IMG/VR virus record: IMGVR_UViG_3300046369_000448
Span: 1-24,844 of that record
DNA: 24,844 bases
Reading direction: 5' to 3' (one strand)
DNA from: a virus
Lineage: Duplodnaviria; Caudoviricetes
The notes below the pieces were generated by a model. That model saw only the letters and a program-made list of their open reading frames with translations. It was not told the origin of the DNA and ran no database searches. Of this stretch, positions 8,255 to 17,984 are shown piece by piece (within the stretch, counting starts at the first letter, position 1; every line of letters starts with the position of its first letter). The position numbers and the translations under genes were made by a program.

Positions 8255-8674
8255 TTACTTAAACCAGCCTACCTTTTCTCCAGCATCTAATCTACGTGTA
8301 TGCTCTTCAACTGTTCCTGGATACCTCCACGCCCATATTGCAACTAATGCCATAAAGCCTCCGCTCCATATTGCAGCATTGATATTATAGGTTGTGAACC
8401 ATAGGAATGCAAGTGAAGAACTCATTACAATCACCATTGCATATTTGCCTTTTGTTGGAAATACTCTCTTTTGTGTCCAGTTTGTAAGGAACGGGCCAAA
8501 GTATTTGTGATTGTATATCCAGTCGTGCATCTTTTTACTACTTTTTGCAAAACAATAAGCAGCAAACACTAAGAATATACTGAACGGTATTCCCGGAACA
8601 ATTACACCAACATATGCCATACCGAGACTCATAAAGCCTAAGCAGAGCCATATATACTTTTTAATTTTATTCAT
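8255..8674 (-). CDS. ybaN: YbaN/DUF454 family inner-membrane protein
   Basis: G..G...PGIP...[11 protein letters not shown]...HDWI.NHKYFGP.L.NW. Confidence 0.85.
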
Positions 8675-9863
8675 AAATTACCTTTCGTAGTGCATCAACT
8701 AGCTGATGCATCATCGCATCTGTATGTAAAGGAGTAGGCGCAATGCGTAAACGTTCTTCTCCAACTGCAACCGTCGGATAGTTGATCGGTTGAATGTATA
8801 TACCAAACTCATTTAATAATGTGTCGCTCATAGTTTTGCATCGTTTGGCATCACGAACCATTACAGGCACGATGTGAGTGCAAGCAACATCAAGAACTTC
8901 TATGTCCACCTCGGATAACATTGCTTTTAGTTTATCTGCACGTTCTTGATGTTGCACTCTAAGGTCGTTATGATCCTTAAGATATTTAATAGAAGCAAGA
9001 GCACCTGCACAAAGTACAGGGCTCATGCTTGTAGTAAAGATGAATCCACTCGCAACAGATCTGATTGCATCAACTACGATGCTATCTGCGGAAATGTATC
9101 CTCCTTGTACTCCATAGGCCTTACCTAAGGTGCCGTTTACTATATCGACTCTATCTTGAATACCTAGCTTTTCAAGGTAGCCTGCTCCATGGTTCCCATA
9201 CAATCCTACCGCATGGACTTCATCGATATAGGTCATTGCGCCGTAGGCGTCTGCTAAATCACAGATCGAAGTTACCAGAGACACATCGCCATCCATGCTA
9301 TACACGGACTCAAAGACTATGCAAGGCGTAAGTCCTTTGGCGGAGACTTGACTCAGTTTCTCCTCTAGATCGCTCATGTCATTGTGCTGCCATATGATCT
9401 TGTCAGCACCACTGTGTCGGATACCCTGTATTAGGCTTGCATGATTATTTGAATCACTCAAAAACACAATGTTGGGAATGATTTTGCTTAGAGCTACTAG
9501 TGACCATTCATTGGCAACATAAGCTGAAGTAAAAAGGAGAGCAGCTCCTTTGCTATGCAGTCGGGCCAGCTCACTCTCTAATGCTACATGATAGTGACTT
9601 GTGCCGCCAATGTTTCTTGTTCCGCCTGAACCACTTCCTGTTTGATCCAGTGCAGTATGCATCGCATCTATCACTACCTTATGCTGACCCATACCTAGAT
9701 AGTCGTTACTACACCAGTTCACAATATTCTTTATATTGTAAGGACCGTACCAGATAGCTTCAGGAAAATCTCCACGCTCTCTTACTATATCATTAAACAC
9801 TCTGTACTTGCCAGATTGTTTTAATTCGTCTATTGTGTTTTCAAATGGTGTTAGATCTATCAT
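8667..9863 (-). CDS. hemA: 5-aminolevulinate synthase (Shemin/C4 pathway)
   Basis: [51 protein letters not shown] (PLP lysine), [12 protein letters not shown]; upstream minus-strand TAAATA (9888-9893). Confidence 0.95.
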
Positions 9864-12820: not shown

Positions 12821-13221
12821 GTTCTGTTTCCTCGCAGAGCAAAATACATTCCGCCTACCCAAAGTAGTACATGAAGATTGTCATACCATAAGACGTCCCA
12901 GAAACTTTCAGGTTCGCCTGTCCATATAACACCTGTCATAATACTTGCAATAGTAATGCCACTAAAACGTGTGATGATATCACCAAACTCTTTTGTTCGT
13001 TTGATATAGTCTGCTAAACCGCCAATTAATAATCCTCCAGCGGCTCCAAGTTCTCCTATTACAACAAAGGACCACACCAGTAGGGTTAATTCTACTGGCG
13101 AGTCTTCAATGTTGATTGGCCACTTGTTCAAACCTTGCTGTAGGAATATAACAATTAATGGAATACGTAGTAGCCAATGAGTCATACAAAACTCAGGTAT
13201 TTTATTAACCAAACTTTTCAT
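12817..13221 (-). CDS. DoxX-family membrane protein
   Basis: LLR..L..IF.QQGL.KW...GEL..GGLL.GG pattern, about four TM segments. Confidence 0.7.
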   Translation of the reverse strand: MKSLVNKIPEFCMTHWLLRIPLIVIFLQQGLNKWPINIEDSPVELTLLVWSFVVIGELGAAGGLLIGGLADYIKRTKEFGDIITRFSGITIASIMTGVIWTGEPESFWDVLWYDNLHVLLWVGGMYFALRGNRT

Positions 13222-13508
13222 TCCAAATGATCCTCAGCACCATATGCTTCTTGCCAATACTCATGTGTTTGATATGCTGCCGTAACATAGCCTGCCGCAA
13301 ACGCAAATAGAACCAATGCTGTAATCTTAAGATTCTTTTTCAGTCCGCCTTTGCCTTTGCTGCGTTTGTATGCTCGCCACATCCACCAAAAGCCGCCAAT
13401 GGTAAGCACTGTGCTGAGTGCAATAATCCAAGGGTTGCTTGCTAGTTGTGCTCCTGTTGCACCAAATATAAGCAATAGAAGTCCGTTAATGTAACATGCT
13501 GGACACAT
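13218..13508 (-). CDS. Membrane protein with N-terminal MCPAC (CxxC)
   Basis: TAATG and ATGA coupling; 2-3 hydrophobic segments. Confidence 0.75.
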   Translation of the reverse strand: MCPACYINGLLLLIFGATGAQLASNPWIIALSTVLTIGGFWWMWRAYKRSKGKGGLKKNLKITALVLFAFAAGYVTAAYQTHEYWQEAYGAEDHLE

Positions 13509-13933
13509 TATAGATCAGCCAATAACTCTTTTAGTTTCTTCTTTGATTTGCCACGTACTTTTGCACCTTTAATTGCATCAACACCTTCTTGTGTCAACTC
13601 ACCTACAACAACAATAGCAATCATGCCCATGCTTTTGTGTGGAGTACACTGATACAAGTATACACCTGGTGTATCAAATGTGATTGTAACTTCTTTTGAC
13701 AGTTTTGATTTCTTAGGTGCGTCCCATCCATCTGGACCAGCAATGAATTCTACATTGTGACCTTTTGATGTTGGTAGCCATGTGATTGAATCTCCTACTT
13801 CGATAGTTGAGATATCTTCACTATAAACCATCTTAGCGCCGTCATCACGCTTGTTCAGCATGTCAACGGATATGTCAGCTGCAAATGCAGGTGCTGCTAA
13901 AAACAGAGCAGCGGCTGTGACTAGATTTCGCAT
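13508..13933 (-). CDS. Pseudoazurin (type-1 blue copper protein) with signal peptide
   Basis: Signal peptide ending AFA-A; GHNV and Y.CTPH..MGM copper ligands; start at ATG 13933 behind AAGGA RBS. Confidence 0.9.
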   Translation of the reverse strand: MRNLVTAAALFLAAPAFAADISVDMLNKRDDGAKMVYSEDISTIEVGDSITWLPTSKGHNVEFIAGPDGWDAPKKSKLSKEVTITFDTPGVYLYQCTPHKSMGMIAIVVVGELTQEGVDAIKGAKVRGKSKKKLKELLADL

Positions 13934-13968: not shown

Positions 13969-14005
13969 TATATAGCATGACTTAACCTGTTTGTCAAGTC
14001 ATGCT
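13969..14005 (-). promoter_or_regulatory. Sigma70-type promoter of the pseudoazurin operon with an operator-like inverted repeat
   Basis: TTGACA (13992-13997), 17 nt, TATATA (13969-13974) with extended TG; AGCATGACTT-N12-AAGTCATGCT. Confidence 0.65.
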
Positions 14006-14034: not shown

Positions 14035-14169
14035 TTATGATGTTGGATACATGTTATGTTTGTATTCTGAAATACGCTGTGCTTCTTTAAACATACCTTT
14101 GCTACGCAATTCACGAATTGCCATGCAGTATGAACGATATTCCATTGCTTTCAAAAATCTCTTAAACAT
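14035..14169 (-). CDS. 44-aa protein (MFKRFLKAMEYRSYCMAIRELRSKGMFKEAQRISEYKHNMYPTS), paralog of 14162..14356
   Basis: Hand-translated; AGGAG RBS; shared A..EL...G..KEA motif. Confidence 0.75.
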   Translation of the reverse strand: MFKRFLKAMEYRSYCMAIRELRSKGMFKEAQRISEYKHNMYPTS

Positions 14170-14356
14170 CTTTATCTCCTAGCATCAATGCTTTGGCTTC
14201 TTTGTGAAAGCCTTGGCGTGATAGTTCAGCTGCTGCTCTTGCTCTGCCTGCTGATTCTCCAAATGCCCAAACACCCATTGCAAATGCAACTAGATATTTG
14301 CTAAGTGTTTTGATAAACTTTGGTGTTGATACGGGTGTTTCGCCTACTGCTTCCAT
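14162..14356 (-). CDS. Small protein (GRARAAAELSRQGFHKEAKALML), possibly DUF1127-related
   Basis: TAATG coupling to the DUF1127 gene; start at 14356. Confidence 0.75.
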   Translation of the reverse strand: MEAVGETPVSTPKFIKTLSKYLVAFAMGVWAFGESAGRARAAAELSRQGFHKEAKALMLGDKDV

Positions 14357-14616
14357 TATACCCAACCTCTCAAGTTACGGTTGATTTCTACAAGTTCACC
14401 GTATGCTGATTTTGGATATGACTGGTGTGCTATAAACTTGATATCGCCTCGTGAAAGACCAATGTCGTTTAGTTCATGGGTTGTAAGTCTTGAAAGCTCA
14501 TTGATAGTGTGTTTGATGTTTCTGCGTCTTTTGATTTCGGCACCTAGTCTTTTGAAAAAGTTAGCGATGCCGTGAAGTCCAACTGTTTCGAATGTGTTTG
14601 CTACTAAAGTAGTCAT
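14356..14616 (-). CDS. DUF1127 (YjiS-like) protein
   Basis: RRR...TINELSRLTTHELNDIGLSRGDI signature; ATG 14616 behind AAGGA RBS. Confidence 0.9.
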   Translation of the reverse strand: MTTLVANTFETVGLHGIANFFKRLGAEIKRRRNIKHTINELSRLTTHELNDIGLSRGDIKFIAHQSYPKSAYGELVEINRNLRGWV

Positions 14617-14786
14617 GTTATTTTCCTTTGTATATATGTGTGTGTGATTTCTAAGGTTCGTCACGTACCCCGGTCTCTTCCGGCGTCACCTTTGTATGGC
14701 ATAGGACATGCCCTTCATCATTTTTATAGAGCTGAAGACGCTCTAGTAGTTTGAAATAGGACAGTCTGACTGCCCTATCTCGCTTT
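14617..14786 (-). ncRNA. Structured ~170-nt 5' leader, candidate cis-regulatory RNA
   Basis: Follows TATAAATA (14787-14794); four hairpins at 14753-14781, 14727-14745, 14698-14712 and 14653-14692. Confidence 0.6.
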
Positions 14787-14875
14787 TATTTATAGTAATG
14801 TAACACTGTTATGCACGAAAATCAACCGTTTTAGTCAACATCTATGTGCATTGCCGTTATGCGTTAACCGCAACT

Positions 14876-15052
14876 CTACACTATGTTTCGACGATCGATA
14901 GGATCACCACGTAGCATACATTCCATTACGTATGCTCTATCATGTTCTTGAAACTCTGTCTTAACATAGTTTTCAAGATTTCTCATTCTCATGTCTCTTG
15001 GTAGTCTGACCGCAGTCATTACACTACCAAGCAAGTTTGCTATAGTTGTCAT
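14876..15052 (-). CDS. 58-aa hypothetical protein (LENYVKTEF)
   Basis: GGAGA RBS, ATG at 15052. Confidence 0.7.
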   Translation of the reverse strand: MTTIANLLGSVMTAVRLPRDMRMRNLENYVKTEFQEHDRAYVMECMLRGDPIDRRNIV

Positions 15053-15153
15053 TGTTTTCTCCAATATGTAATGCTGTCTTATATGGCGGACGCCCGTTGT
15101 CTTTTCAACGTGTCAGGTCGAAGGTGTGAATCACTTCTCTTTTCTGGCCGTTT
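15053..15153 (-). ncRNA. Structured 5' leader sharing a hairpin motif with 14617-14786
   Basis: Follows TAAATA (15154-15159); UGACA-CGUUG-AAAAGA-CAACG-GGCGUC. Confidence 0.5.
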
Positions 15154-15167
15154 TATTTATCTATAGG

Positions 15168-15208
15168 TTGACAAATGATAATTAAAATTGTAACATATAA
15201 TAGTTACA
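15168..15208 (+). promoter_or_regulatory. Sigma70-type promoter of the transporter gene with TGTAAC-N8-GTTACA dyad
   Basis: TTGACA (15168-15173), 17 nt, TAACAT; dyad arms 15189-15194 and 15203-15208. Confidence 0.55.
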
Positions 15209-15251
15209 TTTGTGAGCGACGGGGTAAAGCCGTCAAGCAAAGGAGAAAGAA

Positions 15252-16223
15252 ATGGACGCACTCACCTTATGGAGCCTACTTGGCTTCTTATTAGCTGCCT
15301 ATGCAGTTATAGCAAACGATTCAGTACAGACTCTCGGTACATGGATGGCATCAAACAATGAGAGATTCAACTATAAAGTATTATGGGCAGCAGCAAGTGC
15401 AGTATTACTTGCAACACTATGGTATGGTTGGAGTGTAAATGGTGGAGACATCAGTTACGGCAGATTAAACAAAATCCCATGGCAAGAGGTACAATGGTAT
15501 CACGCAGCCGCACCTGCTATTCTTGTAGCACTTACAAGGATGGGCGTACCAGTTAGCACAAGTTTCTTAGTGCTGTCAGTATTTGCTAGTACCTTTGTAC
15601 TAGAGAAGATGCTTATGAAATCAATCATGGGCTATGGTGTTGCAGCCGCATTTGCATATGCAGTATGGTTTGCAATACACAAGTACTTCGGTAGATGGTA
15701 TGATGAAACTGAAAAGGTTGCTGAAAAGAACAAGAAGTTTTGGCGTGTAGCACAATGGGTAGCAACAGGCGGCTTGTGGTGGACTTGGTTGTCACATGAC
15801 ATGGCAAACATTGCAGTGTTCCTTCCACGTGAAGTTCCGCTGGACCTAATGTTCCTAGTCAGCGCAGTGTTCGTAGGCGGCTTGTTCTTTATGTTTAGAG
15901 AACGAGGCGGCAAGATACAACAGATTGTACTAGAAAAACACAACACAAGATATGTGCGTAGTGCAACGTTGATTGACTTGTTCTACTGGCTATGCTTATA
16001 CTTCTTTAAAGAGCTCAACGATATTCCAATGTCAACAACATGGGTGTTCGTAGGCTTGTTAGCAGGACGTGAGTTGGCTATGGCAACCTACTTTGGCAAG
16101 AAGAAAACCAAATCAGTGTTTCCACTAGTGGCAAAAGACTTTGGTAAGATGATGGTAGGACTAGGCGCAAGTGTCGCACTTGTTCTAATGATCCATTATA
16201 TTATTGTACCAAACGGACTATAA
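15252..16223 (+). CDS. PiT/PHO4-like multi-pass transporter (putative phosphate or anion permease)
   Basis: Duplicated PiT-type signatures ANDSVQTLGT/HDMANIA and GVPVSTS/IPMSTT; about ten TM segments. Confidence 0.7.
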   Translation: MDALTLWSLLGFLLAAYAVIANDSVQTLGTWMASNNERFNYKVLWAAASAVLLATLWYGWSVNGGDISYGRLNKIPWQEVQWYHAAAPAILVALTRMGVPVSTSFLVLSVFASTFVLEKMLMKSIMGYGVAAAFAYAVWFAIHKYFGRWYDETEKVAEKNKKFWRVAQWVATGGLWWTWLSHDMANIAVFLPREVPLDLMFLVSAVFVGGLFFMFRERGGKIQQIVLEKHNTRYVRSATLIDLFYWLCLYFFKELNDIPMSTTWVFVGLLAGRELAMATYFGKKKTKSVFPLVAKDFGKMMVGLGASVALVLMIHYIIVPNGL

Positions 16224-16296: not shown

Positions 16297-17049
16297 ATGA
16301 AGATAGGAATAGCAGGTTACGGATTTGTAGGTAAAGCACACGAAGGTGCTTTGAAAGATTATCATGACTTAATTATATATGATCCTGCACTTGGACACTA
16401 CGGTGATCTAAGACATGCAGATGCAATTATTGTTTGTGTTAGTACGCCTCAAGGTTCACACGGCGGATGTCATATGGATAATGTGTATGATGTTGTCAAC
16501 AACAATTCTAATGTACCAATATTAATAAAAAGTACAATTAGTATCGAAGGATGGGACATGTTGAAACATGTATTTCCTTTTACAAGTATAACATTTTCTC
16601 CGGAGTTCTTAAGAGCAGCATCAGCACTAGAAGACTTTCAAAACACCGACACAATATTATTAGGCGGTGGTAACACAGGCTTTTGGGCTGATATCTTTAT
16701 TACAGCAATGGGTAAAATTAATGTTAACATAGCAAATCCAAAAGAACTTATTGTAACAAAGTATGCTCGCAATAGTTTCTTGGCACTCAAGGTTGCATAC
16801 TTCAATCAAATAAATGACCTGTGTAAGGATGCAGGTGTTGACTATGAGCAAGTAAGAATGTATACTACACTAGACAATAGGATAGGTGAAAGCCATACTA
16901 CAATAACAGATGAACGTGGGTTTGGCGGACATTGCTTTCCTAAAGACACAGGTGCATTTATTGTGTCAGGAAAAAAGTACGGCGAACATCTATCAATATT
17001 AGAAGAAGCAATAAAATATAACCATCGGGTCAGAAAGGATGACACTTGA
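16297..17049 (+). CDS. UDP-glucose/GDP-mannose dehydrogenase family protein, short form without the C-terminal domain
   Basis: G.GFVG Rossmann motif, CVSTP, IKST, PEFLR, K...[18 protein letters not shown]. Confidence 0.9.
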
Positions 17050-17984
17050 AAATGAAGATTATCACAGGAAACGCTAATCCTAAATTAGCAAACGAGATTG
17101 CTGAACATTGTTTTAGCGACCTTGTTCCAGCCAAAGTCACTACCTTTGCAGATGGTGAAACAAGCGTAGAGTTCCAAGAAAATATACGAGGAGAAGATGT
17201 TTTTATTATCCAAAGCACAGCAACTCCTGTTAATGATAGTCTTATGGAATTAATGATTATGATTGATGCTGCCAAGCGCAGCAGTGCAAAACGTATAACC
17301 GCAGTAATACCTTATTTTGGATATGCACGACAAGATCGTAAAAGTGCAAGTCGTACTCCTATCACAGCAAAACTTGTTGCAAATTTAATTACAACATCAG
17401 GTGCTGATAGAATACTTACTATGGATTTACATGCCGGACAGATACAAGGTTTCTTTGACATCCCTGTGGATGATTTAACAAGCCGTGTAGTCTTTGCTAA
17501 AGACATCAAACGTAATGTAGGTACAGATGATGGCACTGTGTTTGTATCACCTGATGCAGGCGGTGCTGTTAGAGCCCGTAAGTTTGCAGACATGTTTGGT
17601 GGTGACATTGCTATTGTAGACAAACGTAGGCCTGAAGCAGGCAAGAGTGAAGTAATGGCCCTAATTGGTGATGTTAAAGGAAAACATGCTATCCTAGTAG
17701 ATGACATTGTTGACTCAGGTGGAACACTCTGTAGTGCAGCCAAAGCAATTATGGACGCAGGTGCATTGTCAGTTCGTGCATACATTACACACGGTGTATT
17801 GTCAGGAGAAGCATGTCAAAAAGTTGAGAAGAGTGTACTAGAAGAACTAGTAATCACTGACAGCATTGCAGATCGTTGTCCTAGGAACTGCAAAAAGACA
17901 CGACAGGTTAGTGTCGCGCCTTTGTTTGGTGAAGCAATTCGTCGTGTAACTAACGAAGAAAGTGTTAGCTCTTTATTTGTGTAA
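17046..17984 (+). CDS. prs: Ribose-phosphate pyrophosphokinase (PRPP synthetase)
   Basis: [47 protein letters not shown]; start TTG 17046 or ATG 17052. Confidence 0.95.

Follow-up and report, generated by a model that had tools for sequence, protein, structure and literature searches.

The window, by which we mean the whole stretch of 24,844 nucleotides that was analysed, comes from a virus record and carries on its minus strand a gene of 86 aa (14356..14616) whose product belongs to DUF1127, as had been supposed from the sequence (PF06568, E 4.7e-12; 85 relatives). It is followed on the same strand by two small overlapping ORFs of 61 and 44 aa (14035..14347) that belong to no Pfam family, and 3′ of these small genes stands a terminator-like hairpin (13974-14005). 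This hairpin also holds a TTGACA just before the pseudoazurin gene, a terminator-promoter overlap. The window further encodes a 5-aminolevulinate synthase (8667-9863, minus strand, above the NCBIfam cut-off) and a pseudoazurin-like protein (13508-13933, minus strand, just under the NCBIfam cut-off), a pair of genes that we take to indicate an alphaproteobacterial host. A PRPP synthetase is encoded at 17046-17984 on the plus strand.

The DUF1127 gene is preceded by a structured leader. The leader is modular, being composed of a 5′ hairpin, a pseudoknot (pseudoknot 1), hairpin H3 with a weaker, possible second pseudoknot, one to four hairpins with an RRARGA loop, and a hairpin with a CC loop before the ribosome binding site. 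A second leader of the same family, with an RRARGA hairpin and an H3-like module, lies at 15053..15148 (minus strand) before a 58-aa ORF (14876-15052); a model made from other leaders matches it at 15074-15115 with a rough E of 0.033, and a pattern scan agrees. This second leader has a different 5′ module and stem changes in its relatives, where the loop and tail of its H3-like module also appear, by eye, to covary.

Contigs from RNA libraries of one seawater study cover the leader, and a contig of run X4 (14555-14759) bridges leader and gene. In run X2 the leader contig has a depth of 80.7, the upstream contig 8.7 and the gene piece 86.9, and in run X4 the upstream and leader depths are alike (25 and 27), but the four runs represent one study, contig depths cannot rank the parts, and contigs show neither ends nor levels. 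The stretch 15171-15774 has no cover in the same four runs. Four small-share runs hold mostly genes of relatives and nothing on release of the leader.

Folding of the leader

A preliminary description made from the sequence had drawn four hairpins in the minus-strand RNA, and all four are present: H1 at 14781-14753, H2 at 14745-14727, H3 at 14712-14698 and H4 at 14692-14653. Pair probabilities are 0.998 for H1, 0.97 for H2, 0.95 for H3 and 0.997 for the inner hairpin of H4, with 0.12 for the outer helix of H4. The 211-nt region folds at −51.3 kcal/mol, with a z score of −2.75 against shuffled sequences (3/200). When H1 is left out the z score is −1.22 (23/200), so that much of the fold signal is that of H1, and since the fold without H1 is not significant, folding energy is insufficient by itself to carry the claim of structure. 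Comparison of homologs gives strong support to pseudoknot 1, H2, H3 and the inner hairpin of H4. Rfam 15 gave no match at gathering scores over the whole window, and the three matches obtained between 13900 and 15300 when E values up to 10 were admitted are all at chance level. The suggestion of a functional structured leader outside the known families is thus upheld, both by the comparisons of pseudoknot and start site given below and by the absence of an Rfam match: the leader is a conserved folded RNA, and its family is real and uncatalogued in Rfam.

A leader family in marine phages

Viral contigs were searched by pattern and by protein, which yielded at least 128 leader sequences falling into at least 106 clusters at 95% identity; a hairpin rule dropped 9 of 171 anchor contexts among the matches listed, all of them belonging to the family but having cut ends or divergent loops or flanks, and 11 of the 17 loci found by an initial degenerate pattern were unrelated. 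The distinct leaders, at least 106 in number, come from uncultured marine phages with T4-type capsids. A T4-type gp23 capsid was found in four of the five large records that carry leader relatives, two of the five being complete at 328 and 343 kb. The leader is present once in each of three large relatives and twice in the window. In 185,579 prokaryote genomes, one strict pattern gave a single match, on a contig that is phage-like by eye; diverged host versions may exist. Cultured phages yielded neither a leader match nor the KTEY family, our label for a small unannotated protein family that also had no usable match in the ESM Atlas, and in phage Phosso inspection by eye showed no leader module ahead of the DUF1127 relative. 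A jumbo relative carries a QueD-like gene (L353:17592-18038) and a QueC-like gene (L357:11990-12574), neither linked to the leader.

What stands 3′ of the 106 leaders, among the matches listed and with gene classes assigned by our own rules, is a KTEY gene in 59, a DUF1127 gene in 29, a DUF3563-like gene in 6, another gene in 4 and none nearby in 8. A ribosome site and start codon follow closely behind 98 of the 106; six of 130 contexts have no close ribosome site and start, the gene there lying about 95-110 nt further on, and no leader without a downstream small gene was seen (all among the matches listed). Seen from the side of the gene, 53 distinct DUF1127 upstream regions carry this leader in 16 cases, a different short, conserved leader in 11 and neither in 26. 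The different short leader (of the type GAGUAAAA-hairpin-ACUC) is found about 60 nt before the DUF1127 start in L016, L020, L063 and others. The nearest DUF1127 relatives, at 81-90% identity, are without the leader studied here, which is therefore dispensable for the DUF1127 gene. Two complete leader-bearing genomes gave no DUF1127 match, and because of this, and because 59 of the leaders stand before a gene of another small-protein family as against 29 before a DUF1127 gene, self-regulation by the phage DUF1127 protein is not general. In three contigs (L050, L051, L073) the opposite strand upstream of the leader has GATTACA direct repeats at 11-bp spacing, facing a divergent gene. We take these spaced repeats to resemble a Pho box.

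Promoter and 5′ hairpin

The hexamer TAAATA lies 5′ of 101 of the 106 leaders, and in 90 of those 101 a G stands six bases after it (both among the matches listed), as against 175 of 795 occurrences of TAAATA at any place in three genomes. Transcription from T4 late promoters starts about 6 nt downstream of the motif. Both features are present in the window, where TATAAATA at 14787..14794 (minus strand), the T4 late promoter consensus (PMC2984593, partial text), forms by motif and by comparison of leaders a T4-late-type promoter whose predicted +1, G14781, is about 6 nt downstream. This predicted start lies upstream of every hairpin and is itself the first base of H1, so that the objection that transcription might begin below the hairpins does not apply, as far as the prediction goes. 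In a relative that is 87% complete, no gp55 sigma factor was recognised among 67 ORFs selected by size, and two relatives had no TAAATA in the 400 nt upstream of gene 23. A tentative sigma70-like promoter, TTGATT-17 nt-TACATT, was picked out by eye at 14797..14825 (minus strand); a consensus promoter scan did not list it, and TA...T occurs at this place in 40 of 101 leaders among the matches listed.

Farther upstream, at 14848..14862 (minus strand), a GCAT-N7-ATGC box read from the sequence is a candidate site for a host LysR-type activator similar to LsrB/VtlR. One small-protein target of VtlR, atu1667, is presumably a DUF1127 gene. Among the matches listed, 44 of 101 leader promoters have GCAT-led boxes, clustered at about −49, −59 and −70 from TAAATA. 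The LsrB/VtlR motif is given as GCAT-N3-TG-N3-T and, in the abcR1 promoter, spans −61 to −49 (PMC8844928, PMC7486931, partial texts); the GCAT, the last T and the phasing of our boxes fit it, the TG is mostly absent, and the window box has one mismatch to the motif in its published form.

H1 (14753..14781, minus strand) is the 5′-terminal hairpin, and its core at 14757-14777 is an operator-like palindrome, TAGKRCAG-N5-CTGYMCTA. With up to two mismatches the palindrome occurs in 31 of 101 leaders, always with a spacer of 5, in 18 of them upstream of the promoter and in 13 at +13 to +15 (all among the matches listed), against a background of 2 in 509 windows; the consensus was drawn by eye from the same sequences, with the spacer free from 2 to 9 and the position unfixed. 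Full RNA pairing is possible in only two of the palindrome-carrying leaders among the matches listed. Judged by its sequence, H1 is mainly a DNA operator-like palindrome that in this leader doubles as a 5′ hairpin. A weaker copy of the palindrome, with three mismatches, lies inside an ORF at 12865-12885 (plus strand) and is probably there by chance. In 58 of the 69 leaders with room for one, a hairpin stands at most 4 nt from +1, the sequences of these hairpins being unrelated; in 52 of the 69 the fold is better than that of mononucleotide shuffles at p 0.05 (all among the matches listed).

The sequence UGUCCUAU does occur twice on the minus strand, at 14763-14756 and 14708-14701, as had been noted. 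The further idea that the second copy offers the 5′ arm of H1 an alternative partner is not supported: the pairing probability is 0.0 here and at most 0.025 in 12 homologs that contain both parts. That pairing would be about 16 kcal/mol worse here, and among the matches listed H1 is transcribed in only 9 of the 19 leaders with the H3 copy.

Pseudoknots, hairpins and the last loop

Pseudoknot 1 (14713..14745, minus strand) consists of the H2 stem, whose loop UUCA pairs with UGAA at 14717-14714, and an A-rich linker. It is present in 74 of the 106 leaders and missing from 32 (among the matches listed). Within the 74, the outer pair of the stem reads G-C 44 times and A-U 30 times, loop-tail pair 4 is C-G in 42, U-A in 31 and A-U in one, and loop-tail pair 1 is A-U in 62, G.A in 11 and A.C in one (all among the matches listed), much of the set coming from a pattern that restricts the tabulated stem and loop bases. 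A metagenome pattern in which two loop-tail pairs were free gave C-G 72, U-A 9 and A-U 5 at one of them and U-A in all 86 at the other (n=86, among the matches listed); these 86 were kept from 94 distinct contexts because a hairpin follows directly behind, and the eight that were dropped comprise two apparent variants and six apparent chance matches. The swap between A-U and G.A, always on both sides together, is seen in 11 of 74 and 10 of 86 (among the matches listed). The covariation score of pseudoknot 1 is 0.224, against 0.127 in shuffles (0/500). A rough tree drawn from the remaining sequence of 69 leaders gives minimum counts of 12, 7 and 8 changes for three pairs, the two partners changing together almost every time; these counts would be raised by any swapping of entire modules. 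Sequence comparison thus indicates a pseudoknot with compensating base changes, in which four pairs are conserved. Of the original proposal, the H-type pseudoknot at H2 stands and its length of six pairs does not: the fifth pair forms in only 28 of 74 leaders, 46 lacking it, and is lacking again in 85 of 86 (among the matches listed), and a sixth would consume the first G of H3. The loop starts with G and ends with CA or CG in all tabulated rows, its bases being partly fixed by the pattern, and in the window it reads G...CA. A short ORF inside the leader was also considered and rejected; it needs a 3-nt insertion found in 4 of 74 leaders among the matches listed.

The next module (14688..14712, minus strand) holds the H3 hairpin and a possible pseudoknot 2, in which the H3 loop CCU would reach across a 6-nt A-rich linker to pair with AGG (14691-14689). 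The H3 stem is 100% paired, with three covarying pairs. The loop-tail helix is 64% paired, and its end pair is C-G in 28 and U-A in 11 of 40 among the matches listed.

The inner hairpin of H4 (14668..14688, minus strand) is an RRARGA-loop module with a UGACG flank, a 4-bp stem and the loop AAGAGA, and it is the most constant unit of the family, with a G-C closing pair. Leaders have one to four such hairpins, 172 in the 106 leaders among the matches listed, with loops that are mostly GAAAGA, AAAAGA, AAGAGA, GAGAGA or CAAAGA. An extra C-G flank pair is found in 165 of the 172 (among the matches listed), and the stems, which were selected for pairing, show covariation. The H4 of the preliminary description therefore holds in its inner hairpin (probability 0.997, with stem covariation). 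Its outer helix is no family feature, being possible in 22 of 106 leaders among the matches listed and confined to one lineage. Iron-responsive elements have a CAGWGH loop, a C1-G5 pair and an unpaired C five bases before the loop. A C stands at the right distance here, but among the matches listed CAGAGA occurs in 1 of 172 loops and 21 loops start with C, and this identification was rejected.

The last hairpin (14644..14664, minus strand) exposes an ACCUU loop with two possible partners, the upstream AAGGU or the AAGG of the Shine-Dalgarno sequence, and its probability is 0.53 against 0.12 for the outer helix of H4. Behind it, at 14617..14643, folding leaves a CA-rich unstructured linker with the Shine-Dalgarno sequence AAGGA at 14628-14624. 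Of 98 leaders, 97 have a CC motif, which 82 of them carry in a local loop; its distance to the start codon is mostly 29-46 nt. At least four pairs could form between the last loop and the Shine-Dalgarno region in 82 of 97 leaders (all among the matches listed). A leader's own Shine-Dalgarno region gives 4.63 pairs and swapped ones 4.71, with 486 of 500 swaps as good, and there is no covariation. In the lineage of the window, pairings among the AGGU, H3 loop, last loop and ribosome site exclude one another and may form a switch, whose bases are invariant in this lineage and so give no covariation. By eye, five of six long leaders keep the purine partner behind the last loop where it is no longer a ribosome site. 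Leaders L241, L243, L346, L134 and L349 have hairpins inserted before the gene, and there the kept purine partner can pair with the downstream strand.

Comparison with known systems

The CcsR or cuckoo RNAs (CIN1 loci, CcaF1), which RNase E releases and which act in trans, resemble the leader in having several hairpins, a DUF1127 neighbour, pyrimidine-rich loops and, in Sinorhizobium, a place in a 5′ UTR (PMC8034643, partial text). The DUF1127 neighbour is found in the window too, and 29 of 106 leaders directly precede such a gene among the matches listed. However, the leader has no CCUCCUCCC in its hairpin loops, it has pseudoknots and RRARGA hairpins, and it is phage-borne and lies mostly before non-DUF1127 genes. 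A phage parallel is found in T4, where the translational operator of gene 32 is a pseudoknot (PMC10690425, partial text). Both are phage 5′ leaders in which an H-type pseudoknot is combined with unstructured RNA ahead of the ribosome site; unlike the operator, the leader does not precede gene 32 and has several modules. Since the leader heads different small genes, simple self-regulation of the gene 32 type does not fit.

Comparable small-pseudoknot types are found among riboswitches such as NAD+-II, SAM-II or SAM/SAH. As in preQ1-I, the leader has a small H-type pseudoknot with an A-rich L3 and a last module that could cover the Shine-Dalgarno sequence, but the UC/AC specificity motif before the P1 3′ strand and the U in L1, as set out in the available part of PMC11625349, are both absent, some 90 nt separate pseudoknot 1 from the ribosome site, and no queuosine synthesis or transport genes lie downstream. 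Like the PeSL cassettes of RB49 and phi1, the leaders are exchangeable regulatory units, those cassettes lying in variable regions of T4-type phages; unlike PeSLs, which are multi-copy and join promoter and terminator, the leader is transcribed and has one or two copies (PMC2839356, partial text).

The closest published candidate is DNAVirus_2114 of Fremin et al. 2023, a 77-nt element in 57 marine viral sequences, 28 of them within 25 bp of DUF1127 genes, for which the accessible text gives one covarying pair and no function (PMC10690425). Either the 3′ part of this leader or the different short leader of the 11 DUF1127 upstream regions may correspond to it, the comparison being by description only. 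A literature search, with subscription papers outside its scope, gave no description of the leader motif, and no motif was obtained from PMC11975290. The leader family is conserved and uncatalogued, and it may overlap DNAVirus_2114, a published but unvalidated candidate, as far as the description in the accessible text allows comparison.

Possible functions

Our preferred reading, which we hold tentatively and at a probability of roughly 0.45, is that the 5′ leader of this phage small-protein operon likely shields the message and, with an RNA-binding protein docked on it, likely adjusts translation. Transcription would start at G14781 from the T4-late-type promoter, and possibly also from the overlapping host promoter, and a repressor may bind the H1 palindrome in DNA. 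In the RNA, the blunt 5′ hairpin would shield the transcript against 5′-end-dependent decay, and the pseudoknots and repeated RRARGA hairpins could be a protein-docking platform whose affinity is tuned by copy number. Fixed loop bases on a variable stem, in one to four copies, are typical of protein-binding sites. Pairing of the last CCU loop with the upstream AGGU would leave the ribosome site free, and pairing with the Shine-Dalgarno sequence would block it. In favour of the preferred reading are the constant place before a small-protein gene, the coincidence of start and 5′ hairpin, the covariation of pseudoknot 1, the pairs open to the last loop in the Shine-Dalgarno region and the contig that bridges leader and gene; against it count the swapped Shine-Dalgarno regions that pair as well, the AGGU alternative that 22 of 106 leaders possess (among the matches listed) and the close DUF1127 relatives that do without the leader. 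A host DUF1127 protein could be the binding partner of the leader; CcaF1 binds RNA, and other DUF1127 members bind PhoR (PMC8034643, PMC12501420, partial texts).

It is rather unlikely that the leader is cleaved off and then works as a trans-acting small RNA or sponge, a UUCCUC-type loop being directed at host ribosome sites or the RNA titrating a host RNA-binding protein. The CcsR RNAs of S. meliloti do appear to derive from a DUF1127 5′ UTR (PMC8034643, partial text), and such a role would suit the protected 5′ end, the last hairpin followed by an A/C-rich single strand, the CC loop that is conserved yet not tuned to its own Shine-Dalgarno sequence, and an upstream box like that of a regulator of small RNAs; against this, CCUCCUCCC loops are absent, intramolecular partners exist for two of the three pyrimidine loops, a downstream small gene is always present among the matches listed, and one contig runs continuously from leader into gene. 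The preliminary description had called the leader riboswitch-like, of which the structured leader stands and the riboswitch function is doubtful, given that modules are optional and shuffled, the downstream genes are non-metabolic and the preQ1-I features are lacking. We consider it unlikely that a metabolite or ion, bound by pseudoknot 1 or by the RRARGA module, moves the CCU loop on and off the Shine-Dalgarno sequence, and equally unlikely that there is a phage-specific riboswitch class of interchangeable parts, in which tandem small pseudoknots and RRARGA hairpins would sense a host metabolite or stress signal and turn a CCU loop onto the ribosome site, letting jumbo phages match host-like regulatory microproteins such as PhoR-binding DUF1127 to the condition of the infected cell. 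An H-type pseudoknot with A-rich linker and fixed bases does recall preQ1-I aptamers (PMC11625349, partial text), the two-sided swap from A-U to G.A points to tertiary contacts, the pairings of this lineage are mutually exclusive, and the purine partner is retained, by eye, in five of six long leaders, but 32 of 106 leaders have no pseudoknot 1 (among the matches listed), modules vary in order as well as in number, downstream genes serve no metabolic role, Rfam has no match and the ribosome site shows no covariation.

A purely passive stabiliser, in which the 5′ hairpin and stacked pseudoknots merely block nucleases and so allow abundant and prolonged synthesis of the small proteins, would account for the finding that 58 of 69 leaders begin with a blunt hairpin whose sequence varies (among the matches listed) and agrees with the unpaired 5′ bases that B. 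subtilis RppH requires (PMC3997798, partial text); it leaves the fixed loop bases, the repeated RRARGA hairpins and the invariant CC loop unexplained, and we regard it as distinctly unlikely. Still further down, and highly improbable for the leader as a whole, is a cassette that works at the level of DNA, controlling a promoter and shuffling genes in the manner of the PeSLs of T4-type phages. H1 acts operator-like and leaders are swapped between genes, as this would have it, but the covariation of the pseudoknot is a signature of RNA, there are only one or two copies per genome, and the leader has no internal U-tail terminator; for H2 to H4 the idea is already unlikely.

The family is a phage-restricted RNA that joins a covarying pseudoknot to a plug-and-play grammar of modules, and the modules are short and can be tested in ligand or protein screens. 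The small proteins it would control have host relatives that bind RNA and the phosphate sensor PhoR (PMC8034643, PMC12501420, partial texts). Layered control of a single cassette is suggested by the host-type activator box, the operator, the two promoter types and the RNA leader, and the significance would be greatest if a ligand or a role in trans proved true.

Beside the leaders, at about 15200-15251 on the plus strand, the window holds a conserved hairpin with a GGUAAAG loop 5′ of the gene for a 323-aa membrane protein, and the same hairpin also stands 5′ of a porin-like gene in another contig (L008).
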